From an uncultured delta proteobacterium (GTDB lineage Bacteria > Desulfobacterota > DSM-4660 > Desulfatiglandales > HGW-15): a DNA stretch of 64,000 nucleotides. Made by a program: the position numbers and the translations under genes. The notes beneath the pieces are model-generated. The model was not told the origin of the DNA. It searched no databases and was given only the letters and a program-made list of their open reading frames with translations. The stretch lies in the NCBI GenBank assembly GCA_963707125.1, contig CAVPOU010000004.1:84241-148240 (forward strand), given 5' to 3'. Below, piece by piece: positions 2,549 to 21,849 of this stretch; position 1 is the stretch's first letter, and every line of letters begins with the position of its first letter.

Positions 2549-3026
2549 GGTTTCATGCCTTATTCGTTGGAAACCTATTGCTTAAAGAAACTCCTGAAGG
2601 CAAGCGAGAATCGTCCCTGCATTACTCTGAGCAAGACCTGTGCCATGGAGTTAACACCAAACATTCTTCGTGATTTCAAAATGTTGCCAAGGAAGTGTAA
2701 ATCTAATTGTCAGAAAGATCTTGACAATTTCTGTCCAATTTGGATATTTTTGGGGAGGGATTGCTTAACTTACGATGGATCATTTAATTAGTTCATTTCT
2801 CAGGCCTACTCCCAACAAATGGTGATATTCACCTATGAGAGATACCAGGTCTTTGCGTTCTGCGAATTGGGAATCAAGGGTTTACAAGGGGAGGTCCATC
2901 CATTATTGTATTCTACCTGAGAGCAAGAAGGGGTTTGTTAACCGGTGAGCTCTGCTGGAACATCTAGCCGGTATTTTTCCGTAGTCTGCTCTCATTAGTT
3001 CAAAGTCGTCCTTGAGGTTTAAGCTA

Positions 3027-4295
3027 ATGAATGGCAAAGATGATAAGAACGGGGAAAAAGCAACCCCTCTATCCAGTAGCCAGGAATTGTTTGAAAAGAT
3101 CTTCAAGCGAGCAACGATGGAGATCAAAAGGGAAAAATCAGGGGAAGTTCAAACTCACCAACCCACCCCAAAATCCGATCCAGGACGAAGACAGCATCAA
3201 ACAAAGACACCGGAGATTAAGAAGAGCGCCGTTAAGGGTGCAGGGCCTCCTACCCCTCGAAAGCTTGAAACAGCCAAAACACCTCTTCCGGTGAAGAGTG
3301 AAAGAGCAGATTCAAACCCTCCGCCAAAAGGCATGTCCAAAACCGACAAGAAAAACGCGAAGAGATCCGGTGCTCCGAAGGCAGCAGTCCTCCTAGTCCT
3401 TCTAGCTATTCTTGCCGGGATAGTTTCGAACTACATGGGGATCATCGATATTTCTCTTTTGCTCAATTATTTTGGATTTGGTCCTCAGCAGGTCGTTCAA
3501 GCACCTATTCCCAGGAAACAACCGGCGAAGCCTCCTGAAAAGCCTGCTATCTCCCCAAAGCAACCGCAAGCGCAGGAAAAGGTTTCCACACCCCCACCTG
3601 CGCCAAGCGAACCAACTCCTCCAGCTGTGTCGAAGGAGGAGAAACTCGTGGAATTGGAAACGCCCACAGCAATCGCACAAGCAGCGCCGGGCGAGGAGCG
3701 AATCGAGAAAAAAGCGCCCTCCGTGTCCACTACCGACCAACCTAAGCCTCCTGAGGTTTCTGCCAAGCAGGAACCTCAGCCACTGCCACTCCAGACTCAG
3801 CCTTCGGCCAAACCCAGCGCAACGGAAGTTTCTCCCTCTCCGCCAAGGACCCCTGAATACCCTTATTCCGTATATCTCGGCTCTTTGAAAGCCCATGAAG
3901 CAGTTAAGAAAGCCATCTCCGACTATCAGGAAAAGGGGCTTTCTCCTTATTGGACAAAAGTGGATCTAGGGGATAAAGGTGTTTGGTTCAGGGTTTTTGC
4001 AGGGTATTTTCGAACCAAAGATGAGACCGAGAAGTACATCAGGGACCGGAACATTCAAGGAGCTACGCCTGGGATTACAAAATACGCAAATTGGATTGGG
4101 AGCTATGGATCTGACAAGGAAGTTGAGGATCAGAAGCGAGCGCTTCTGTCTGCAGGCTTTTATCCTTACGTCATTAAAGCGCCTGACGGGAAGAGCTTGC
4201 TCTATTCAGGAGCTTTTGACCGAAAGGAGTATGCGGAAAAAGAGCGAAGCGCCTTGGCCTCTAAAGGCATCAAGAGCGAAGTCGTAGAGCGGTAG
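3027..4295 (+). CDS. SPOR domain-containing membrane protein with a Pro/Lys-rich linker
   Basis: The ORF is open from 3012. ATG at 3027 has GAGG 9 nt upstream. One TM segment (AAVLLVLLAILAGIV), then a long P/K/E/Q-rich region. Two C-terminal SPOR-like units (YSVYLGSLKAHEAVKK..WFRVFAGYF and NWIGSYGSDKEVED..LLYSGAFD). Confidence 0.8.
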   Translation: MNGKDDKNGEKATPLSSSQELFEKIFKRATMEIKREKSGEVQTHQPTPKSDPGRRQHQTKTPEIKKSAVKGAGPPTPRKLETAKTPLPVKSERADSNPPPKGMSKTDKKNAKRSGAPKAAVLLVLLAILAGIVSNYMGIIDISLLLNYFGFGPQQVVQAPIPRKQPAKPPEKPAISPKQPQAQEKVSTPPPAPSEPTPPAVSKEEKLVELETPTAIAQAAPGEERIEKKAPSVSTTDQPKPPEVSAKQEPQPLPLQTQPSAKPSATEVSPSPPRTPEYPYSVYLGSLKAHEAVKKAISDYQEKGLSPYWTKVDLGDKGVWFRVFAGYFRTKDETEKYIRDRNIQGATPGITKYANWIGSYGSDKEVEDQKRALLSAGFYPYVIKAPDGKSLLYSGAFDRKEYAEKERSALASKGIKSEVVER

Positions 4296-4300
4296 AAGAA

Positions 4301-4336
4301 GTAATGAGTAATGAGTAACGAGGACTGAGGACTGAG
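4301..4336. repeat. Heptamer array (TAATGAG x2, TAACGAG, GACTGAG x2); its last 18 nt form the left arm of a perfect inverted repeat
   Basis: Read directly: gtaatgagtaatgagtaacgaggactgaggactgag. CGAGGACTGAGGACTGAG at 4319-4336 is the exact reverse complement of 4854-4871. Confidence 0.85.
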
Positions 4337-4424
4337 TAGAATAAACCCAGTACGGAAGACTGAGGCCTCAGTAATGAGTTTAAAACCGACAGAAACAAGG
4401 ACCTCAGGCCTGGTTACCCAGTCC

Positions 4425-4811
4425 TTAATGGGCTTTTGCCTGTTTCGCCACGGAAGACCTTAGACCGCCCACGATCCTCCCAACTTCTTCAGCGAGTAGC
4501 AATATTTCTTCAAACTCCGATTCGGCGACGTATCCGACGTCGAGGGCAACATAGAGTATCGACCGAAGCTCAGCACAGGAGCCCTTTGCGATTGAGAGAA
4601 ATTGATGGAATTCTTTTCGGCCACCTCTTTCAAATCCTTCTGCAATGTTGGACATAATTGAAACGGCAGCCCTTTGGATCTGACCTAAGAGACCAAAATC
4701 CCTCGCAAATCGATCTTGTCGAGTGATCTCATAGATTTTCTTTGCCAGTTGCCTCGCCTTTTGCCAAGCTATCAAATGTTCAAACCGCGTGATCTTGCCT
4801 TTCTCACCCAT
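4425..4811 (-). CDS. Four-helix-bundle protein (23S rRNA intervening-sequence protein / Avd-like family)
   Basis: 128-aa [58 protein letters not shown] is the characteristic pattern of this family. Confidence 0.85.
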
Positions 4812-4853
4812 ACCTACTCTCCCTCTTTTGCCACTGATTTTCCTCGCTCATTG

Positions 4854-4871
4854 CTCAGTCCTCAGTCCTCG
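4854..4871. repeat. Right arm of the 18-bp perfect inverted repeat flanking the four-helix-bundle gene
   Basis: CTCAGTCCTCAGTCCTCG is the reverse complement of 4319-4336. It overlaps the last codons and stop of the radical SAM gene (..PRTED*). CAATGAG- and CGAG-type heptamers continue outward. Confidence 0.85.
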
Positions 4872-6111
4872 GCACTAGCCTTTCCACCATCTCCATCATT
4901 TGCCGGTGCTTTGTGCCTCCCGGACAATACTCGCACTCTCCGTGAGGGGATATGGGAATTTTAAAAGCATGGGCTCTAAGGTGGGCGACCTGACAGAGGA
5001 AGTCCACAGGTTCTTCTGCATCTCCGCACTCAAGCACCCCGTTTGCAGGGCACATGCCGCACATGCTCCTTAGCTCGCAGGCCAGGCACTTTGTCTTTCG
5101 AGTGGCCTTCTTCCTGCTCACCTTCAGCAGGAACTCCTCCCAGCCTTCCTTGAAGCTGCCTTTCCTTAGGTCGTAGGTTTCGCCGTGCCGGAGCACGCAG
5201 GTGCTCAGCTTTCCGGAAGCGTCTATCGCAAAAGTGTTGTGAGCACCGCCGCAGGTGTAGAGTTCAACCCCCTCCTCAGGGTTGTGAGCAGGCCTCTTGA
5301 AATGCTCGCAGAACTTGACCCATTCGTTTTTCCTGTTCGGCTCCTTCAAATCCAGCTCCACCACTTCCGTGGGAGAGAGCCTCACACTAAGAGGGGCAAG
5401 CGATGAGTCAACCCTTCGGCTACCCCGTGCTTCTCCACGGGGCCTGCTCAGGGTTGACCCTGAGCGGGGCTTGAGCGCCGTCGAAGGGTCAACCCGAGGA
5501 TTGATCATGGCGTCAAACCGGAACTCCAGGCCCAGTTCCTCTTCGACGAAACGCTTCATGTCCCATATCTCATGGGTGTTGGGCTTGAGGACCATGGTCT
5601 TCAGAATCGGCGGCAAGCCCACCTCCATGAGAAGCCGCACTCCCCGCATGGTCCTGTCAAAGGACTTGGCAACACCCGTGACTCTATCATGCGTCACCGC
5701 TGTGCAGCCATAGAGGGAGACTTCTACGGAGAAAGGTCTCCACGTGGCCAGATATTCCGCTACCGCAGGGGTGATGAGGGTCGCGTTGGTGAAAAGAGTG
5801 ATCAGGAACCCTGCGTTCTTGGCATGCGCATAGATGTCTAAGAAATCCTTTCTGACAAAGATCTCCCCTCCGGTGTAAAGCAGCCACAGGCATCCTTCTG
5901 CGGCCAGCTCGTCAAGGATTCGGCAATGTTCGCCAAGAGTGAGTTCGGTGCGGCGGGCTTGTTGATCGCTAAGTGGAAGATTATTGTAGCAGTGAACACA
6001 GGTGAGGTTGCAGCGCTTGGTGACCTCCATGGAGCCATCGATGGGAACCCGTTTCGCTACAACGCGATCATGAACGCTCAGGCTCCAGTCTTGATAACTT
6101 TGAGTTTCCAT
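4855..6111 (-). CDS. Radical SAM / SPASM domain protein (peptide-maturase-like)
   Basis: 418-aa ORF. CNLTCVHC is the CxxxCxxC triad near the N-terminus. C-terminal Cys clusters (YTCGGAHNTFAIDASGKLSTC, CLACELRSMCGMCPANG, CEYCPGG) are typical of a SPASM/twitch extension. Confidence 0.85.
   Translation of the reverse strand: METQSYQDWSLSVHDRVVAKRVPIDGSMEVTKRCNLTCVHCYNNLPLSDQQARRTELTLGEHCRILDELAAEGCLWLLYTGGEIFVRKDFLDIYAHAKNAGFLITLFTNATLITPAVAEYLATWRPFSVEVSLYGCTAVTHDRVTGVAKSFDRTMRGVRLLMEVGLPPILKTMVLKPNTHEIWDMKRFVEEELGLEFRFDAMINPRVDPSTALKPRSGSTLSRPRGEARGSRRVDSSLAPLSVRLSPTEVVELDLKEPNRKNEWVKFCEHFKRPAHNPEEGVELYTCGGAHNTFAIDASGKLSTCVLRHGETYDLRKGSFKEGWEEFLLKVSRKKATRKTKCLACELRSMCGMCPANGVLECGDAEEPVDFLCQVAHLRAHAFKIPISPHGECEYCPGGTKHRQMMEMVERLVPRTED
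5405..5497. repeat. In-frame palindromic insertion inside the radical SAM gene
   Basis: Three copies of a 10-mer in alternating orientation: GTCAACCC at 5407-5414, GGGTTGACCC at 5451-5460, GGGTCAACCC at 5486-5495. An inner hairpin is CCCCGTG-cttctc-CACGGGG. The segment translates to the low-complexity stretch DPSTALKPRSGSTLSRPRGEARGSRRVDSSL between the core and the SPASM part. Confidence 0.5.
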
Positions 6112-6177
6112 GGATCAACATGGTACCATACCGTTTGAGCTTCTGCAAAACCCCTTAACATCCGAATACAAGACCAA

Positions 6178-6399
6178 TCACGAAAGCACGAAATTAGGAA
6201 AGCACGAAGGAAAACCAGGAGAGCTTTCTTTATATTTGTCAATCCTGATGGGTTTGTAAGAAGTCAGGAAATGACCTCTTGGGTCATTCCGGCGGAAGCC
6301 GGAATCCATTAAAAACAATCCATCCTGGACCCCGGCTTCCGCCGGGGTGACGGCTTTGAGGGCATTCCGGGAGAGCATCTGTTTTCATGCCTTCGTGTT
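6178..6399. repeat. MITE/REP-like intergenic element with CACGAAGG-containing terminal inverted repeats and internal hairpins
   Basis: The left end agcacgaaggaaaac (6201-6215) matches the right end gttttcatgccttcgtgtt (6381-6399). Internal perfect hairpins are ATTCCGGC-ggaa-GCCGGAAT (6286-6305) and CCCCGGC-ttcc-GCCGGGG (6330-6347). CACGAA motifs are reiterated at 6179-6206. Confidence 0.6.
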
Positions 6400-6481
6400 A
6401 GCGCTTCCTTTCTTGGTGCCAACTCGGCGCTTGTAGCAGAATTCCAGGTGAGGTAAAATAATCCTGCAAGCTGATTGACAC

Positions 6482-8296
6482 ATGCGGAGGGCAAGGGATC
6501 TGGATAACTGGTGGACCTATCTGAAGCAGGGACTTTCGCGTCCATCCCCTGAAGACAGGATTGCAGGTCAGGAGGGGTACGGAAACACTCTCGATAGTCT
6601 CCGCAACCTGCGACCGTACCTCCTCCGTCACTGGCGAAACGCGGCCGCTGGCCTTCTTCTCATTCTTTTTGCCTCCCTTCTCGCTTTCCCCCAGCCGCTC
6701 ATCACACGGTACATCGTGGATGATGTCATTCTGAAACGCCAGCTCGGGCTTCTGGCAGGCGCTATTGCTTTGCTCATCGTTCTTATCCTGGCTGAAAAAC
6801 TCGTCAAGGTGCTTGAAGACTTCACCTTTGCCCGTTTTGAGCAGGGAATCACGCTCGACATCCAGCAACGCCTCTTTGACAGGGTCCTCCACTTTCCCAA
6901 GTCCTTCTTCGATGAAATCCAGACCGGATATTTGATGTCCAGACTATCCGACGATGCAGAGGGGCTGCGCTGGTTCTTTTCGAGCACCGTTGTGTACGTT
7001 CTCAGCAATCTGATCCGATTCGCAGGAGGTGTCGGTTTTCTCTTTTACCTCGAGTGGCGGCTCGCGGTGATCATTCTCGTTATCTTTCCTGGGATCCTCT
7101 TTGCCATGAATTACTTTGCGAGAAAAGTGCATGTCCTGAGCCATCGCAGCATGGAGCAGGAAGCCCACATCTCCAGCCGCATGCAGGAAGCCCTGTCCTC
7201 CACGCCCTTGATCAAATCCTTCGCATCCGAGGATAGAACGCAGAATCGTCTCGTCTCCGAACTCAAAAAAGCATTTCAAATCTCCCTTGAGCAAACCGCT
7301 GTCAGCTCCTTGGCGGACACGGCGATCAGCATCCTGCCTGCTGTTTCGCGAGGCATTGCTCTTGCTCTAGGCGCCTACTGGGTCATCAAGGAGGAGTGGA
7401 CACTGGGCTCCCTTCTCGCGTTCCAGGGTTATCTGGGATATGTCTTTGGCCCGGCCCAGTTCCTCGCAACCGCCAATCTCCAGCTCCAGAAAGCCCTGGC
7501 AGCCCTTCAACGGATTTGGGCCCTCTTCCGAATCCTCCCTGAGGAGAATTCACGGACGGGGATCAAAGTGGATCATTTGAAGGGTGAAATCGAGTTCAGG
7601 GAAGTCTCTTTCTCTTACAACGGCCGTGAAAACGTGCTCGATCGTCTCTCTTTCGAGATCCGGCCCGGTGAACATTTGGCCGTGGCGGGACAGAGCGGTG
7701 TCGGAAAAACGACGCTCCTGAGTCTTATCCTTTGCTTCTACAGGCCTACGTCGGGTGAGATTTATTTTGACAGCCGGCCTGCATCCGATCTCCAGGTCAC
7801 GTCGTTGAGGAAAAAAATCGGGTATGTTTCTCAGAACACTCTCCTCTTGTCCGGTACGATCATGGATAACCTCAGGTACGGAAACCCCGAGGCCGGTGAG
7901 GAGGAAATGATTCAGGCATCCCGAGCAGCGGAATTGCATGATTTCATTACGGGTCTGCCATCGGGCTACCACACAGAGATCGGGGAAAAGGGAATAAGAT
8001 TATCGGAAGGGCAGAAACAGAGGCTTTCCATTGCAAGAGCGTTGGTCAAGGTACCGGATGTCCTTGTTCTTGATGAGCCCACCTCCTCCCTTGACGGCAA
8101 GACAGAGGGATCGATCCTTCGTTCTCTCCCTGCCTTCGTAAAGGACAAAACCCTCCTTGTCGTATCCAACAAACTCTCTACGCTGAAGTATTGCGATCGC
8201 GTGTTGCTCCTGGATGAAAACAAGCGCCTCACCTCGAGCACTCACCAGCAGCTTATGGAGACGAACGAGTATTACCGGTCCCTCATCCCGCATTAG
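6482..8296 (+). CDS. ABC exporter, fused permease/ATPase (MsbA/type-1 exporter-like)
   Basis: 604-aa ORF. About six predicted TM helices in the N-terminal half. Walker A GQSGVGKTT, signature LSEGQKQR, Walker B VLVLDEPTS. Confidence 0.9.
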   Translation: MRRARDLDNWWTYLKQGLSRPSPEDRIAGQEGYGNTLDSLRNLRPYLLRHWRNAAAGLLLILFASLLAFPQPLITRYIVDDVILKRQLGLLAGAIALLIVLILAEKLVKVLEDFTFARFEQGITLDIQQRLFDRVLHFPKSFFDEIQTGYLMSRLSDDAEGLRWFFSSTVVYVLSNLIRFAGGVGFLFYLEWRLAVIILVIFPGILFAMNYFARKVHVLSHRSMEQEAHISSRMQEALSSTPLIKSFASEDRTQNRLVSELKKAFQISLEQTAVSSLADTAISILPAVSRGIALALGAYWVIKEEWTLGSLLAFQGYLGYVFGPAQFLATANLQLQKALAALQRIWALFRILPEENSRTGIKVDHLKGEIEFREVSFSYNGRENVLDRLSFEIRPGEHLAVAGQSGVGKTTLLSLILCFYRPTSGEIYFDSRPASDLQVTSLRKKIGYVSQNTLLLSGTIMDNLRYGNPEAGEEEMIQASRAAELHDFITGLPSGYHTEIGEKGIRLSEGQKQRLSIARALVKVPDVLVLDEPTSSLDGKTEGSILRSLPAFVKDKTLLVVSNKLSTLKYCDRVLLLDENKRLTSSTHQQLMETNEYYRSLIPH

Positions 8297-8420: not shown

Positions 8421-8475
8421 CTGCTTATCAGGTAGTCTTCAGAGGTTTCGGTGCTCTGGGTCCTTCTTTTTCTGT

Positions 8476-10497
8476 CTACTGTCTACTGTCTTCTGTATTC
8501 TTCCCTTCGCTCTTTGCTGGAGCACAACTCTGGTCATCCGGGGCTGGCGGGAAATAGACCCTGAACGTGGTTTCTCCTGACTTGAGGCAGTCCTCCCGCT
8601 CCCTGCAAAACCGGCACTTGCTGATTCTTCCGGGGCAGAGATCACTGTCTTTGGGGATGAATCCGCATCGCGAGGATTCCATGTCGATTTCGAAGCTGAA
8701 CCGCTCGGCGAAAATCTTCATGCGCAGGAGGTCTGCTCCCTTACCTCCAGCGTAGAAGTCAAAAGGTCTCTTCGAGGAGTAGGCCATCGTATCATGGGTG
8801 GTAAAAAAACCTTCGAAGAGTCTTTTCTGATTCTCCTCCGTGATGCCGATCCCGTAGTCATGAACGATCAGCTCTCCTCCATCCCCTTTCCGATGAACCG
8901 TGATCTCGATTTTTCCTTCATCCGGAGTCGCCTCTATCGCATTCCGGAGGAGCCCATCCACCACTTTTTCGAGCACATCCTCCGGCACGCAAATGTTCGG
9001 CACCGATTCAAGATGAGTGGCGATCTCCACTTCCCGGTAAGGATACTTTGGTCTTAAAGTCTCGATCCTCCATTCCACAAATCTTTCCAGGGAGAATTCG
9101 GAAACCTTTATCTCCTTGGGCCCGTAGAGCTCTTCGATCTTGTTTTTGATCCTGTCAATGATTGGACCTTCTCCCACTTCCTGCACCACAAGAGTTTCAA
9201 GCTCATCCGTGCACTGCTCCAGAAGCATGTTGAGAAGATGGTAGGTCCGGTACTGCCTGTCGGCCATGATGTCTTCCACCTGGTACTGAATCCCCAGGAT
9301 GCGATCGAGGTTTCGCCAGGCTCTCTCGTAAGTCTTTTTCCAGCCTTGTTCCGGAAGATCTTCCAATTTTTTCGACAGGATGTTCAGGCTTGCCATGAGG
9401 ACTGAAACCGGGGTCTTCAACTCGTGGGAAAGATGGTTAATGGCCCGATCCTTGGCGCGGTTCAAACTCGCGAGTTCCTTGTAGGCTTCCGTGACCTCCT
9501 TGGCGTACCTCGCGTTCTCGATGGAGAGCGCCACGGTGCCGGCAATGAGATTGAGACGTTCCACGTCCGTCTGGTCAAAAACAGCCTTCCTCTTGTTAAT
9601 GGCACAGAGCACGCCAATGATGCGATCACCGCTCTTTAGAGGGACGTCCAGCATGTTGCGCGATTTGAAATGCATCTGGTCATCGACAAAGCCGTAGAAA
9701 TACGGATCCTTTGAGGTATCAAGGACAATGACCGGCTGACCCGTCTTGAGAACTCTTCCTGAGACCCCTTTGCTCGCGGGATACCGAACTTCCTTGGCTC
9801 TTCTCTGGGTGTCCCTGTCATCATAAGCCGCGCCCAGGAAGTAAAATTCTTTCTTCGCCTCATCCAGGAGAATCACGAGCGCGCCTTCCACCTCAAGAAC
9901 GCGTTTGATCTCTCTGCTCACGTAGTCCAGAAGATCTTCCAGACGAGGGTAGGAAGGCAGGGCCATGCTAATGCGGAAAAGAGCGTCCTGGGTCAGTTGG
10001 AGTTTTTTCTCCTGGGTGATATCTCTCAAGAGGACCACTTCTCCTGCCGGCTCGCCTTCCATTTCTGAAAAGACGGCGCCGCTCATCAGCACCTCGATGA
10101 CTTGTCCATCCTTGGTCAACCTCCTGCTCTCATGTCGATGGATCATCTTCTCATCGAGAAGTTTTTTGATATCCGCCTTGACCTGATCCTGAAGATCCGC
10201 CGGAACATAAGGGATGTGCTTCCCCTGCAACTCCTCAAGGGACCAGCCGAAGGTCTGGGTAAATGCTGGATTGAGGTAGCTCACCTTACCTTCCACGGTG
10301 AAGACCGCCATCGGGTAAGGGACAAAATCGAGGAGGGTCCTGTATCTCTTTTCAGCCACGCGGCTTGCTTCGTAGGCGCACCGGTAGTCATATTCAGACT
10401 CTTTCAGGACCTGCACCTGCTCGACCCTGTCCGGCTTCTTCTTTTTGCCCTTGGACGGCGATCGTTGCCCCCGGCCCTTGGATTTTGCGGTCATCAC
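8476..10497 (-). CDS. Sensor histidine kinase (PAS - GAF - HisKA - HATPase) with a Cys-rich insert in the ATPase domain
   Basis: 673-aa ORF. H-box HLSHELKTPVSVL. GAF-like segment (..VSGRVLKTGQPVIVLD..). ATP-lid residues GIGITEENQKRLFEGFF. C-terminal CGFIPKDSDLCPGRISKCRFCREREDC. No response regulator is adjacent. Confidence 0.9.
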   Translation of the reverse strand: MMTAKSKGRGQRSPSKGKKKKPDRVEQVQVLKESEYDYRCAYEASRVAEKRYRTLLDFVPYPMAVFTVEGKVSYLNPAFTQTFGWSLEELQGKHIPYVPADLQDQVKADIKKLLDEKMIHRHESRRLTKDGQVIEVLMSGAVFSEMEGEPAGEVVLLRDITQEKKLQLTQDALFRISMALPSYPRLEDLLDYVSREIKRVLEVEGALVILLDEAKKEFYFLGAAYDDRDTQRRAKEVRYPASKGVSGRVLKTGQPVIVLDTSKDPYFYGFVDDQMHFKSRNMLDVPLKSGDRIIGVLCAINKRKAVFDQTDVERLNLIAGTVALSIENARYAKEVTEAYKELASLNRAKDRAINHLSHELKTPVSVLMASLNILSKKLEDLPEQGWKKTYERAWRNLDRILGIQYQVEDIMADRQYRTYHLLNMLLEQCTDELETLVVQEVGEGPIIDRIKNKIEELYGPKEIKVSEFSLERFVEWRIETLRPKYPYREVEIATHLESVPNICVPEDVLEKVVDGLLRNAIEATPDEGKIEITVHRKGDGGELIVHDYGIGITEENQKRLFEGFFTTHDTMAYSSKRPFDFYAGGKGADLLRMKIFAERFSFEIDMESSRCGFIPKDSDLCPGRISKCRFCREREDCLKSGETTFRVYFPPAPDDQSCAPAKSEGKNTEDSRQ

Positions 10498-14814: not shown

Positions 14815-14843
14815 AAAATCAATCTACCAAGATACATGAAATT

Positions 14844-15001
14844 GTAACTGCTCAGGTGTTTAGGCTGAAGGCTGAAGGGCAATAGTGATCATCCATGACA
14901 CAATCACCTGCCAAGGTATCCAAACGATCTTGGCTTTGTGTGATCGCGCATGTCTTTTCCTTCAGTCTATCTACCTTCAGTCTATCCACCTGAGTAGTTA
15001 C
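14844..15001 (+). repeat. Family 1 structured MITE-like repeat, copy A (158 bp)
   Basis: Terminal inverted repeat GTAACTGCTCAGGTG / CACCTGAGTAGTTAC. Arms GGCTGAAGGCTGAAGG versus CCTTCAGTC..CCTTCAGTC. Central hairpin ACACAA..CCAAG..CTTGG..TTGTGT. It differs from copy B at 4 of 158 positions. Confidence 0.8.
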
Positions 15002-15479: not shown

Positions 15480-15630
15480 TTAAGGTTATATTATATTTAT
15501 TATAAATAATTATATATAATTTTGTGTGTATTTATTTGTTATAAAAACTACTTTTCTTGTTAATAAAGAACAATAATTGTCATATTTCATACGATTTTAT
15601 GGAAATTATCTGTCTACTTCAATGCAGATT
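15480..15630. promoter_or_regulatory. ~150-bp strongly AT-rich tract upstream of the 15013..15330 gene
   Basis: ttaaggttatattatatttattataaataattatatataattttgtgtgtatttatttgttataaaaac.. stands out sharply from the ~50% GC surroundings. A function (promoter/UP element, nucleoid-protein site) is only inferred. Confidence 0.35.
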
Positions 15631-15631
15631 T

Positions 15632-15789
15632 ATAACTGCTCAGGTGTTTAGGCTGAAGGCTGAAGGGCAATAATGATCCTCCATGACACAATCACCTGCC
15701 AACGTATCCAAACGATCTTGGCTTTGTGTGATCGCGCATGTCTTTTCCTTCAGTCTATCTACCTTCAGTCTATCCACCTGAGTAGTTAC
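15632..15789 (+). repeat. Family 1 structured MITE-like repeat, copy B (158 bp)
   Basis: Near-identical to 14844-15001 and in the same orientation. Confidence 0.8.
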
Positions 15790-19318: not shown

Positions 19319-19470
19319 GTAACTGCTCAGGTGTTTAGGCTGAAGACTGAAGGGCAATAATGATCATCCATGACACAATCACCTGCTAACCTGCCTGCCG
19401 CGCCCGCGGCGCAGGCAGGTGTCTTTTCCTTCAGTCTATCTACCTTCAGTCTATCTACCTGCGTAGCTAC
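19319..19470 (+). repeat. Family 1 structured repeat, copy C (variant central hairpin)
   Basis: Same arms as copies A and B. The central segment is replaced by a different hairpin, CCTGCCTGC-cgcgcccgcg-GCGCAGGCAGG. Confidence 0.75.
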
Positions 19471-19515
19471 GGTTCTTGTTTATTTGGTTGATTCCATTCT
19501 TTCCGGAGAGATTCT

Positions 19516-21849
19516 TTGCTGCAGAAGAAGCACAACAACGTTCTTGATCACATCGGCTGGACGCCTCTTGTGCCCATCCGCCAGTTGAATACCAACCGAA
19601 GCGTTCAGATCCTGGCCAAACTCGAGTCCTTCAACCCCGGAGGCTCCGTGAAAGACAGGCCGGCCTTTTACATGATCGAAGAGGCGGAAAGAACCGGAGA
19701 ACTGACCAAGGACAGGATCATCCTGGAGGCAACGAGCGGCAACACAGGGATCGGGTTGTCTCTTGTGGCCGCCGTCAAGGGCTATCGCATCCTGCTGGTG
19801 ATGTCCGAAGCCGTCAGTGAGGAAAGAAAAAAGATTTTGAAAGCCATGGGGGCGGATCTCCAGTTCACCCCCGCCCACATGGGCACGGATGGATCCATCG
19901 AGTTCGCCTACAACCTGGTCCGAGAAGAAGCGCAGAAGTTCTGGCTTGCAGACCAGTTCAACAACGATGCGAACTGGCTCTCCCACTACCACGGAACAGC
20001 TATGGAGATATGGGAGCAGACCGGCGGCGCCTTGGACATGGTCGTGGCCAGCATGGGCACCACGGGCACCCTCATGGGGCTTGCCCGGCGCTTCAAGGAG
20101 CTCAAGCCCGAGGTCCAGATCATCGGCGTAGAACCTTACATGGGGCACAAGATTCAGGGTCTCAAGAACATGAAAGAGTCCTATCCCCCGGGAATCTACG
20201 ACCGGAAAAGAGCGGACAGGATTATGCATGTCGACGATGGAGAGGCTTTTGAAACCACCAGACTCCTTGCCAAGAAAGAAGGCCTTTTCGTGGGCATGAG
20301 CGCAGGGGCGGCCATGGCCGTTGCTCTCAGGCTCGCTCGAGAAATGAAAGAGGGACGAATCGTCGTCATCCTTCCGGACGGAGGGGAACGCTATCTGAGC
20401 ACTTCTCTTTTCGTGGACAGAAAAACCTCGGGGCTTTGCCTGTACAACACGCTCACGCGGAGAAAGGACGCGTTCGTTCCGATCCAGGAAAACCGGGTCA
20501 GCCTCTACAGCTGCGGGCCCACCCTTTGCCAGCACCTCCACATCGGGCAAGCCCGCCAGCTGGTTTTCTCCGACCTGGTCCGCCGCACCCTCGAGCTCAA
20601 GGGCTACGAGGTCACTCACATTGTGAACGTGACGGACATTGACGACCGAACCATTGAAGGCGCGGAAAAAGAGGGGGTGGACCTCAAAGAGTTTACGGAA
20701 AGGTACTATCAGGAGTTTCTTAAGGACCTGGATTCGCTCCTTGTCAAGAAGGCCACCGCCTATCCCAAAGCGAGCGAGCACATCGAGGATATGATCCAGT
20801 TTTCCGGCAAACTCCTCGACAAAGGGTACGCCTACGAGAAATTCCGCTCCCTCTATTTTGACATCTCCCGGTTCAGAGACTACGGGAGACTCTCCAGAAT
20901 CGACCTGGACAAGATTCACCTGGGGAAAACCGTGGATCTCGAACGATATGAAAAGGGCAATCCCAGGGATTTCACCCTCCTCAAGCGTTCCACCCTGAGC
21001 GAACTCAAGAAGGGCATATTCTTCCAGACCAAGTGGGGAAACGTAAGACCGAGCTGGCACCTCGAGTGCCCGGTCATGGCTCTAAAATTTCTCGGCGACA
21101 CCCATGACATCCACACCGGAGGAGCGGATCTCGTGTTCCCTCACCACGAGAACGCCATCGCCCTCAGCAGGGCAATCACCGGTAAACCGCTTGCCAATTA
21201 CTGGCTGCATCATGAACTGGTCATGGTGGACGGCAAGAAACCGGCCGACGGCAAGGAGAGCGAACACACCACGATCAAGAATCTTCTTAAGAAGGGGTAC
21301 ACCGGGAGAGAAATCAGATACTGGCTCATCAGCCATCATTACAACAAGCCCATCTCCTTTTCTCTGGCTAAGCTGGACAACGCGAAGAAGACTCTTTCCA
21401 ACCTGGACAAGTTCATGAAGAAAGTCTTCTTTTGCCGCTCCGGTGAAACCAACCCTGAAATGGACCAGGTGGTCTACAACCTCAACCACAAGTTTTCCGA
21501 AGCCATGGATGACGATCTCAACACCTCGCAGGCTCTGGCTGCCCTGTTCGAGTTTACCCGTGAAGTGAACCGCATCGTCGATCAGAAGGGACTCTCTCAG
21601 GAAGACAAGCAGCGGGTGAAAGAAGCCCTGGGCGCCGTCAACTCGGTCCTGGAGATCATGGACCTGGACGCGCCCAAGGCGGACGAAGCGATTGAAGCCC
21701 TGATTCAGAAAAGGGAAGCGGCTCGAAAGCCAAGGGACTGGCAAACGGCTGACCGGATTCGCCAAGAGCTCAAGAGGATGGGAATTGAGCTGACGGATAC
21801 CAGGGATGGAACCATGTGGCGGAGAGAATGGGATTCGAACCCGAGGTAG
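19516..21849 (+). CDS. Fusion protein: CysK/CysM-like PLP cysteine synthase (aa ~1-300) + cysteinyl-tRNA-synthetase-like domain with degenerate class I motifs (aa ~305-777)
   Basis: N-terminal half: ..NPGGSVKDRPA..TSGNTGIGL..GTTGT..SAGAA.. C-terminal half is collinear with CysRS (LYNTLTRRKD..YSCGPT..WHLECPVM..FPHHEN..DDDLNTSQALAAL..GTMWRR). It reads HIGQ instead of HIGH and KKPADGKESEH where KMSKS is expected. TTG start is assumed at 19516. Confidence 0.8.
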   Translation: MLQKKHNNVLDHIGWTPLVPIRQLNTNRSVQILAKLESFNPGGSVKDRPAFYMIEEAERTGELTKDRIILEATSGNTGIGLSLVAAVKGYRILLVMSEAVSEERKKILKAMGADLQFTPAHMGTDGSIEFAYNLVREEAQKFWLADQFNNDANWLSHYHGTAMEIWEQTGGALDMVVASMGTTGTLMGLARRFKELKPEVQIIGVEPYMGHKIQGLKNMKESYPPGIYDRKRADRIMHVDDGEAFETTRLLAKKEGLFVGMSAGAAMAVALRLAREMKEGRIVVILPDGGERYLSTSLFVDRKTSGLCLYNTLTRRKDAFVPIQENRVSLYSCGPTLCQHLHIGQARQLVFSDLVRRTLELKGYEVTHIVNVTDIDDRTIEGAEKEGVDLKEFTERYYQEFLKDLDSLLVKKATAYPKASEHIEDMIQFSGKLLDKGYAYEKFRSLYFDISRFRDYGRLSRIDLDKIHLGKTVDLERYEKGNPRDFTLLKRSTLSELKKGIFFQTKWGNVRPSWHLECPVMALKFLGDTHDIHTGGADLVFPHHENAIALSRAITGKPLANYWLHHELVMVDGKKPADGKESEHTTIKNLLKKGYTGREIRYWLISHHYNKPISFSLAKLDNAKKTLSNLDKFMKKVFFCRSGETNPEMDQVVYNLNHKFSEAMDDDLNTSQALAALFEFTREVNRIVDQKGLSQEDKQRVKEALGAVNSVLEIMDLDAPKADEAIEALIQKREAARKPRDWQTADRIRQELKRMGIELTDTRDGTMWRREWDSNPR

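Follow-up and report, generated by a model that had tools for sequence, protein, structure and literature searches.

The window analysed here, a stretch of 64,000 nucleotides from a contig of an uncultured delta proteobacterium, carries a gene for a 128-aa four-helix-bundle protein that belongs to the 23S ribosomal RNA (rRNA) intervening sequence (IVS) protein family. The gene lies between a radical SAM/SPASM gene and a SPOR-domain gene and is enclosed by arrays of tandem heptamers in inverted orientation; the gene together with its arrays is referred to below as the cassette. Read on the minus strand, the order of features is radical SAM gene, array A, leader, four-helix-bundle open reading frame (ORF), array B, loop segment and 3' array (Table 1).

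Table 1. Features of the cassette locus and its two flanking genes (positions in the window; alignment A1 compares the window with the empty hairpin of the related contig L116)
Feature	Position	Strand	Basis or remarks
Radical SAM/SPASM gene	4855-6111	-	Upstream of the four-helix-bundle gene and co-directional; likely source of the cassette-carrying transcript
Array A (5' heptamer array)	4842-4876	-	5 units; tandem-repeat and pattern scans
Right arm of 18-bp inverted repeat (5' arm in transcript)	4854-4871	.	Exact reverse complement of CGAGGACTGAGGACTGAG; paired in minimum free energy (MFE) and centroid folds
5' untranslated region (UTR; 30-nt leader) of four-helix-bundle gene	4812-4841	-	Sequence, promoter scan
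Four-helix-bundle gene	4425-4811	-	128 aa; PF05635 / TIGR02436 (23S rRNA IVS protein family); profile matches
Array B, degenerate direct copy of 5' array	4402-4424	-	Alignment A1, sequence
Loop segment TCCTTGTTTCTGTCGGTTTTAAA	4379-4401	-	23 nt; homologous to the loop (22 nt) of the empty L116 hairpin
3' heptamer array, reverse-complement type	4301-4378	-	11 units
Left arm of 18-bp inverted repeat (3' arm in transcript)	4319-4336	.	CGAGGACTGAGGACTGAG on the plus strand; repeat search, folds
SPOR-domain gene	3012-4295	+	Convergent; borders the cassette at its far end; listed for context

Structure of the locus

A perfect 18-bp inverted repeat around the gene had been reported when the DNA was read on its own, without database searches (the sequence-only reading), and it was recovered at the same positions. 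When up to 3 mismatches were allowed, the 18-mer matched the window at 3 places, all of them at the cassette locus, where shuffles gave an expectation of 0.03; a chance origin of the repeat was rejected. The arms extend to 23 nt with 91% complementarity and are spaced 517 nt apart. The heptamer arrays proved to be real and longer than first listed, with 5 units upstream of the gene (minus strand: AGTGCCG, AGGACTG, AGGACTG, AGCAATG, AGCGAGG) and 11 downstream of it (CTCATTA, CTGAGGC, CTCAGTC, TTCCGTA, CTGGGTT, TATTCTA, CTCAGTC, CTCAGTC, CTCGTTA, CTCATTA, CTCATTA), and array B (GGACTGG, GTAACCA, GGCCTGA, GG) begins directly after the ORF stop codon. The palindromes described within the cassette are present too, CTGAGGCCTCAG at about 4360-4371 and CCTCAGGCCTGG at about 4402-4413. 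Array A is itself coding for the end of the radical SAM gene, namely its final codons and its stop (TGA, 4857-4855), which lies inside the right arm as had been noticed, and on the opposite side the 3' array starts 6 nt beyond the SPOR stop (4293-4295), a spacing which agrees with the earlier one and is here measured to the start of the array. The sequence-only reading had also proposed a search for the 18-mer and the arrays elsewhere; no further 18-mer, NNNNGAG array or PF05635 gene was found in the 64-kb window, and the idea of a fixed arm sequence had to be given up, each locus having its own heptamer (see below).

A Shine-Dalgarno-like GAGGGAGAG is located in the 5' UTR, about 6-14 nt ahead of the ATG. 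The promoter scan predicted no promoter-like site between the radical SAM gene and the four-helix-bundle gene, and the terminator-like site found at 4346-4364 is weak and local. An intrinsic terminator shared by the convergent genes, for which a short GC-rich hairpin with a small loop and a following U-run would be expected, was rejected as the origin of the repeat, since the arms lie 517 nt apart and enclose a coding gene, and this weak site was the only one seen. Rfam finds no rRNA in the 64-kb window, where it finds only a tRNA, and no described RNA family over the arrays or the stem; the combination of ORF, stem and heptamers that marks an IVS is present between protein-coding genes, as had been proposed. 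Folding of the transcript, suggested earlier as a check, was carried out on a 596-nt RNA (4885 to 4290) and gave the terminal long-range stem both in the MFE structure and in the centroid.

The assignment of the 128-aa protein to the IVS protein family was borne out by profile matches well above the cut-offs: PF05635 (23S_rRNA_IVP) matched residues 11-114 with E=1.4e-36 and 125.4 bits (cut-off 33.8), TIGR02436 matched with E=4e-34 and 117 bits (cut-off 24), and the solved structure PDB 2GSC (Xanthomonas XCC0516) matched with E=2.7e-15. The ratio of non-synonymous to synonymous substitution (dN/dS) of the gene is about 0.09 against the related contig L099, and the ORF is intact and, to judge from this ratio, under purifying selection. 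Genes annotated as PF05635 "four helix bundle protein" are abundant among bacterial genomes; the homologue search gave at least 7998 matches at E <= 0.001 (all 8000 scored candidates were significant), and the best 120 of the 8000 were 69-98% identical to the query.

Weak matches were also obtained to Avd, an accessory protein of diversity-generating retroelements (DGRs) with the same four-helix-bundle fold family (bAvd PF22296, about 27.3 bits; DivGenRetAVD NF033474, 23.5 bits). An origin of the gene as the Avd-type remnant of such an element is nevertheless most improbable; these scores lie far under the respective cut-offs of 40 and 80 bits and well below the match to PF05635, the window gene stands alone in a repeat hairpin, and no reverse transcriptase was recorded among the called genes within +/-10 kb in the window neighbourhood or in the longest near-identical contigs (up to 10 kb per side). 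A DGR remnant was rejected on these grounds, in agreement with the absence of a retroelement noted by the sequence-only reading.

Inverted arrays across the protein family

Eighty homologue loci (53-73% identity) were taken from species-representative genomes of Acidobacteriota, Chloroflexota, Cyanobacteria, Deinococcota, Planctomycetota, Gemmatimonadota, Desulfobacterota and other phyla. Nearly all 80 have a tandem heptamer array just 5' of the gene and a reverse-complement array just 3' of it. RNAduplex energies calculated on the 200-nt flanks were driven by length and GC content and did not discriminate; a bracket score, the best ungapped inverted match between the 200-nt flanks, was used instead together with genomic controls. 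The median score was 21 in 78 loci (homologues and window); for shuffled flanks it was 7, and none of these exceeded 13. A score of at least 14 was reached by 81% of 74 homologous loci and by 0.8% of 472 control ORFs on the same contigs, which shows that the association with a hairpin is specific to the PF05635 family. Furthermore, of 180 heptamer arrays detected over 677 kb, 120 are no more than 250 nt from a four-helix-bundle gene, and three distant homologues from plasmids (37-45% identity; Nostoc, Calothrix, Riemerella) are arranged in the same way, with units of other types. It is clear that the bracket is a family-wide trait, near-universal among the sampled relatives.

Universal 23S motifs were absent from every fetched locus and Rfam found no rRNA in the 13 loci scanned. 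In 64 of 70 loci the four-helix-bundle gene has the direction of the upstream ORF, and in 48 of 64 both neighbours share its direction. The median gaps to the neighbours are just 70 and 49 nt, so that the arrays take up the intervals on either side of the cassette, from the neighbour's stop to the next start. Co-direction, short gaps and the lack of a promoter-like site together suggest that the gene is expressed via read-through in host transcription units. One distant cassette, on a Calothrix brevissima plasmid (L128, 405-1878), has AGGGTGT-type arrays and a co-directional gene of the phage-integrase family directly upstream.

Heptamer units and matching of the arms

The heptamer differs by locus, with at least 19 unit types (for example GAGGACT, GAGTGCT, GAGTGAT, GAGTAAT, GAGTTCC, AAGTAGA, AAGTCCA and GAGGTAT). 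Within a locus, an exact unit is common to the 5' arm and the reverse-complemented 3' arm in 38 of 46 cases; when the arms were re-paired at random between loci there were 8.5 matches on average and never more than 16 in 2000 permutations. What is conserved in the arms is the 7-nt periodicity, the AG core and the complementarity from arm to arm, not a fixed sequence. Once the arrays had each been phased on AG, this dinucleotide was present at positions 2-3 in 57-59 of the 60 locus consensuses (by estimate only about one random heptamer in three has AG in some rotation), and the overall consensus is GAG-K-R-C-T. The 5' arrays have a median of 4.9 units, a value biased by the detection floor of 3 units. 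Pairs of proteins from loci sharing a unit are 61.2% identical and pairs from loci with different units 57.4%, a difference that was reached in 2 of 2000 permutations.

Two cassettes lie 3 kb apart on one contig from Terriglobia (L062, 1906-2352 and about 4900-5400), one with GAGTTCC and the other with GAGTGCT/GAGTCCT heptamers, and these different heptamers are each matched between the cassette's own arms; for the cassette at 5001 on this contig, a search of 200 nt downstream found no partner array.

Arrays were also met away from the gene. On cyanobacterial and Nitrosomonadales contigs, GAGTGCT arrays are found exactly where ordinary genes adjoin (L025, 6497-6523 and 7880-7914; L036, 6292-6359), and those of L025 flank a 434-aa gene in forward and reverse orientation; heptamer arrays are therefore not confined to the four-helix-bundle gene. 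At another locus (L063, 445-671) matched GAGTGAT arrays surround a 153-nt non-coding loop in place of the gene, and within this loop there is a hit to the Rfam motif Acido-Lenti-1 (RF01687) with 39.7 bits, above the gathering score. The window itself has a separate array of about 4 units with an AG core (minus strand, CAGTAGA-type) at 8470-8496, at the 3' end of a PAS/GAF histidine-kinase ORF (8476-10497, minus strand), with no inverted partner seen.

The arrays could be, in the main, periodic binding sites for an oligomeric protein, perhaps the four-helix-bundle protein itself as a pentamer with one AG core per subunit. RNA or single-stranded DNA would then be bound in the manner of TRAP, the cassette would be a module regulating itself or other arrays, and the stem would be secondary. 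TRAP is a ring-shaped homo-oligomer that binds regularly spaced (G/U)AG triplets; it is an unrelated protein and the spacing here is 7 nt, so that the likeness is a functional analogy in which binding by the window protein is hypothetical. The related Avd, itself an accessory protein, binds nucleic acid. The invariance of AG every 7 nt while the other positions vary, the number of about 5 units per array and the occurrence of arrays at other gene junctions would all be expected of binding sites, as would the weak tracking of heptamer type by protein divergence. Moreover, a solved member of the family is described as a homopentameric toroid (Lin 2006, as cited in PMC4990558), and similar arrays are reported from Beggiatoaceae, Cyanobacteria and Geobacter (PMC4679880, PMC2700814). 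Binding sites would, however, leave it unexplained why the arms are reverse complements made of locus-specific units; furthermore, protein and heptamer type are weakly linked, with shared ancestry as a confounder, and the count of about 5 is subject to the detection floor. Protein recognition of the arrays is thus the main rival to a reading in which the arms form a processed stem (see Discussion), and is itself rather unlikely.

Orthologous loci with and without the cassette

Comparison of the region between the SPOR and radical SAM genes in relatives, which the sequence-only reading had put forward, was made for 35 metagenomic loci with radical SAM orthologues, and the cassette was found to be present in some and absent in others. 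It is present in L092, L097 and L099, where the cassette protein is 97-98% identical and the radical SAM protein 79-88%, and frameshifted in L112, L117 and L118. In L116, L095, L096 and L109-111 there is an empty hairpin, consisting of a heptamer array, a 22-30-nt loop and a reverse array; in L093, L100-102, L107 and L113 a forward array is followed by unrelated sequence; and in L103, L105 and L106 there is nothing at the site. The 5' array at the radical SAM C-terminus is kept in most relatives whether the gene is present or not, and the gene-carrying loci are not monophyletic in the radical SAM tree. Conservation of the cassette in all relatives, named earlier as an observation that would speak against mobility, was not what was found.

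In alignment A1 the 5' arm and loop of the empty hairpin of L116 align to array B and the loop of the window, array B being homologous to that arm. The occupied allele therefore consists of the empty hairpin with, in addition, about 470 bp that comprise the leader/5' UTR, the ORF and a single direct copy of the array, a pattern which would be produced either by insertion into the 5' arm or by loss through recombination between the direct arrays. The inserted unit of about 550 bp that had been proposed thus stands as a dynamic unit but not in its arm-to-arm extent, since the alleles differ by about 470 bp and L116 and L095 keep the hairpin. In contig L002, from the window's own population, the 3' array is shorter by exactly one heptamer unit, showing that the arrays also slip.

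Four orthologous junctions in other phyla, at which both flanking genes are 66-93% identical in amino acids, gave a similar comparison; they lie upstream of a ClpB-like gene (Chloroflexota), of coaX (Acidobacteriota) and of hydantoinase-like genes (Chloroflexota; Deinococcota), gene names that were taken from N-terminal sequences. In three of the four, the cassettes are 57-67% identical, which is below either flank, and their heptamers differ; those at the hydantoinase-like junctions are unrelated (GAGGACT and AAGTGGA/AAGTTAA in one, GAGGACT-like and AAGGTGA in the other). The coaX pair has cassettes that are 87% identical, with GAGGACT in both. Since the change of a multi-copy array on two arms by point mutation over so short a period is judged implausible, replacement of the gene with its arrays as a unit is the simpler explanation. 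At the window locus, the synonymous divergence (dS) of the cassette is 0.11 against L099 and the matching L097 contig, where that of the neighbouring ABC gene is 0.26, and it is 0 against L092, where that of the ABC gene is 0.18; the pattern, on few sites, is suggestive and compatible with a recent exchange. To judge from these alleles, the cassette is a dynamic unit that is gained and lost among orthologous loci, and it may be actively mobile. As for its vehicle, the cassette had no match in phage records and no relative in viral contigs, and the 29 plasmid records with relatives were all below 60% identity; a phage or plasmid vehicle was rejected.

The empty hairpins raise the question of whether the hairpin is a host intergenic element, such as a 3'-end stabiliser, a terminator or a slippage-made repeat of the repetitive extragenic palindromic type, with the gene as a passenger that undergoes neither processing nor dedicated mobility. 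Empty hairpins are found both at the radical SAM 3' end (L116, L095) and at other sites (L042, L055). Their folding is strong: among four for which a fold was computed, L095 had a z-score of -2.1 and the other three had values from -4 to -12; the persistence of the 5' array irrespective of the gene and the terminator-like site in the window point in the same direction. Such an element would, however, not be expected to bracket PF05635 genes so much more often than other ORFs, nor would its arrays be expected to change together with the gene at orthologous junctions, and this account is considered unlikely. Moreover, arms 517 nt apart would be unable to act as an intrinsic terminator, and a clear U-tract is wanting in the empty hairpins. 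The terminator alternative mentioned by the sequence-only reading is therefore reasonable where the radical SAM gene ends in an empty hairpin but not for the widely spaced arms of the occupied allele.

It is very unlikely that the arrays are the terminal inverted repeats of a DNA transposon or miniature inverted-repeat transposable element (MITE) that depends for its movement on a transposase gene at another place. As in such elements, the termini are inverted, the cassette is present at some loci and absent from others, and a genome may have several copies; the direct array copies around the window ORF could be read as a duplication made by insertion. The arm sequence differs between copies, however, even within one contig, which is incompatible with a single transposase-binding site; the arms persist without the gene, no transposase was found within +/-10 kb, and relatives in phage, viral and plasmid records are wanting or few, as described above. 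Classical transposon or MITE ends were rejected on account of the variety of arm units between loci and the lack of a transposase nearby.

Discussion

The explanation that is favoured here, and that seems on balance probable, is that a widespread cassette of the IVS type, of which this locus is one copy, lives in mRNA, is processed by RNase III and is gained and lost as a unit. Having no promoter of its own, the cassette would be transcribed as a 3' extension of the radical SAM mRNA, in which array A would pair with the outer part of the 3' array (4301-4341) through 18 perfect bp plus extensions, enclosing about 500 nt. RNase III would cut this long double-stranded stem, as it does in the homologous 23S rRNA IVS of Coxiella, and the cut would free the four-helix-bundle mRNA from the host transcript. 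Since the cassette RNA would be separated by cutting, its insertion into transcription units, be it in rRNA helices or between cistrons, would be tolerated. Gain, exchange and loss as a unit would occur probably via recombination at the repeat arrays, and loss between the direct copies A and B would leave a solo empty hairpin. Co-transcription, stem and RNase III cutting are all proposed because ORF, heptamers and stem are homologous to those of the Coxiella IVS.

In that IVS, which lies in helix 45, a homologous S23p ORF is preceded by 2-3 tandem GACAGAT heptamers whose number varies between strains; the terminal stem has 28 bp, and RNase III cleaves it in vitro where the first repeat begins (PMC4990558). 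ORF-containing 23S IVSs (Coxiella burnetii, Leptospira) and the window cassette thus share a PF05635/S23p ORF in the loop of a stem formed by terminal repeats, tandem heptamers of variable number upstream of the ORF at the stem, an ORF with the same sense as the host transcript, and a sporadic distribution that suggests horizontal transfer (PMC4990558). They differ in that the IVSs are found in helix 9, 25 or 45 of the rRNA and the window cassette lies between the radical SAM and SPOR genes, outside any rRNA gene; in the stem, which in the window has 18 perfect bp with extensions; in the arrays, which in the window are longer and present on both arms; and in the ORF, which in the window is kept intact under purifying selection. 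Furthermore, excision by RNase III is known for Coxiella and predicted for the window cassette.

Several observations weigh against the explanation by stem processing. Cleavage by RNase III of copies outside rRNA would be an extrapolation from the rRNA IVSs, and the ORF of the Coxiella IVS is apparently unexpressed. The folding z-score of the whole transcript is unremarkable and not significant (-1.25), so that the terminal stem is the informative part of the fold. Mismatches between the arms, counted in order to tell pairing in RNA from pairing in DNA, are G:U in 48 cases and A:C in 52. G:U is not in excess, so that selection for pairing in RNA has left no mark specific to one strand, and pairing at the DNA level or concerted evolution would fit the matching of the arms equally well; as the mismatches stem from reordered unit variants, however, this comparison has little power. 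Neither a 7-nt period nor an invariant AG is required of an RNase III stem, and the fact that both are superfluous for a plain stem indicates that a further factor is at work, for example protein binding or slippage; the period may make pairing tolerant of register shifts after slippage, or it could be the mark of an oligomeric protein that recognises the arrays. At the radical SAM site the alleles would fit gain as well as loss, and no recombinase was found to be associated with the cassette.

A more far-reaching proposal is that PF05635 proteins and AG-heptamer arrays together make up a new kind of element without a conventional transposase, in which the protein as a pentamer recognises the arrays and drives exchange of the cassette or controls the access of RNase III. 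The pentamer would bind the periodic AG heptamers on RNA or single-stranded DNA, and the protein would catalyse or guide array-to-array insertion or exchange into the hairpins of rRNA helices and operon junctions. This is regarded as a doubtful, speculative extension; if true, rRNA IVSs would be the few conspicuous members of a much larger family, which would have left its footprints in many genomes as empty hairpins.

By analogy only, solo long terminal repeats and integron cassettes may also be compared with the cassette, in that a cargo gene is bounded by repeats and recombination between the repeats leaves a solo repeat structure. The boundaries of integron attC sites are set by structure and not by a fixed sequence. 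In contrast to integrons, the window cassette has no integrase or platform, there is one gene per site, and its repeats are short tandem arrays.

Heptamer arrays between genes have been described before: the short tandemly repeated repetitive (STRR) sequences of cyanobacteria, the TAACTGA repeats of Beggiatoaceae, Cyanobacteria and Bacteroidetes, and the palindromic sites with fivefold MTYCTGA of Geobacter metallireducens are all 7-nt tandem arrays like those of the window. In the two reports (PMC4679880, PMC2700814) such arrays lie at gene junctions, often abutting start or stop codons, have related units (xxCTGA) and are regarded as possible regulatory sites; class-3 sites in Geobacter are paired on opposite strands, as are the empty hairpins here (PMC2700814). 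The window arrays fall within this descriptive class of intergenic tandem heptamer arrays, a class that implies no mechanism, and differ from it in being matched inverted pairs that enclose one specific gene family. Term searches of the text of PMC4679880 and PMC2700814 found no mention of a four-helix-bundle or IVS protein.

PF05635 genes outside rRNA, the stems of rRNA IVSs, the heptamers of the Coxiella IVS and intergenic heptamer arrays on their own were all known already. A full-text search, whose scope was papers outside subscription journals and did not extend to the family notes of databases, found no publication linking PF05635 genes outside rRNA to inverted heptamer arrays, and in the literature so searched no description was found of family-wide, covarying inverted arrays or of empty-hairpin alleles. 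The origin of the rRNA IVSs and the role of their ORF have been an open question since 1990-93 (PMC4990558). With ORF, heptamers and stem recurring in ordinary operons of many phyla as a cassette that is gained and lost, the rRNA IVS would seem to be one special case of a general element; the same association provides a concrete lead on the puzzling intergenic heptamer arrays of cyanobacteria, Beggiatoaceae and Geobacter.

Other features of the window

The region upstream of the cassette (4855-8296) holds the radical SAM/SPASM gene divergent from an ABC exporter gene, for which one source gives the name of a bacteriocin/lantibiotic exporter with a double-glycine peptidase domain. Between these two genes there is a 66-aa ORF (6178-6378, minus strand) that is called as a gene in related contigs, and the three may form a peptide-maturation cluster of the type that yields ribosomally synthesised and post-translationally modified peptides. 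The radical SAM protein of the window has 418 aa and most close relatives have 391 aa, without a low-complexity stretch of about 27 aa. In comparison with L092 and L099 the radical SAM gene is fast-evolving, its product being 79-88% identical where the ABC protein shows 91-95% identity. At 6179-6208, upstream of the radical SAM gene, there is an octamer array, CACGAAAG x3.8, and the CACGAAAG motif is found downstream of that gene in the cassette-less relatives L100, L101, L107 and L120.

Further along the window, an intergenic element of about 160 nt occurs in three copies that are 94-98% identical (14842-15001, 15630-15789 and 19319-19471). It has inverted termini, GTAACTGCTCAGGTG ... CACCTGAGTAGTTAC, and internal repeats (AGGCTGA x2.4, CCTTCAGTCTATCYA x2.2), and looks like a small ORF-less, MITE-like palindromic element. 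Finally, a 777-aa ORF at 19516-21849 (plus strand) has a cysteine synthase domain (aa 9-299) in frame with a cysteinyl-tRNA synthetase (aa 307-770); the two may be truly fused, or they may be neighbouring genes with no stop between them.

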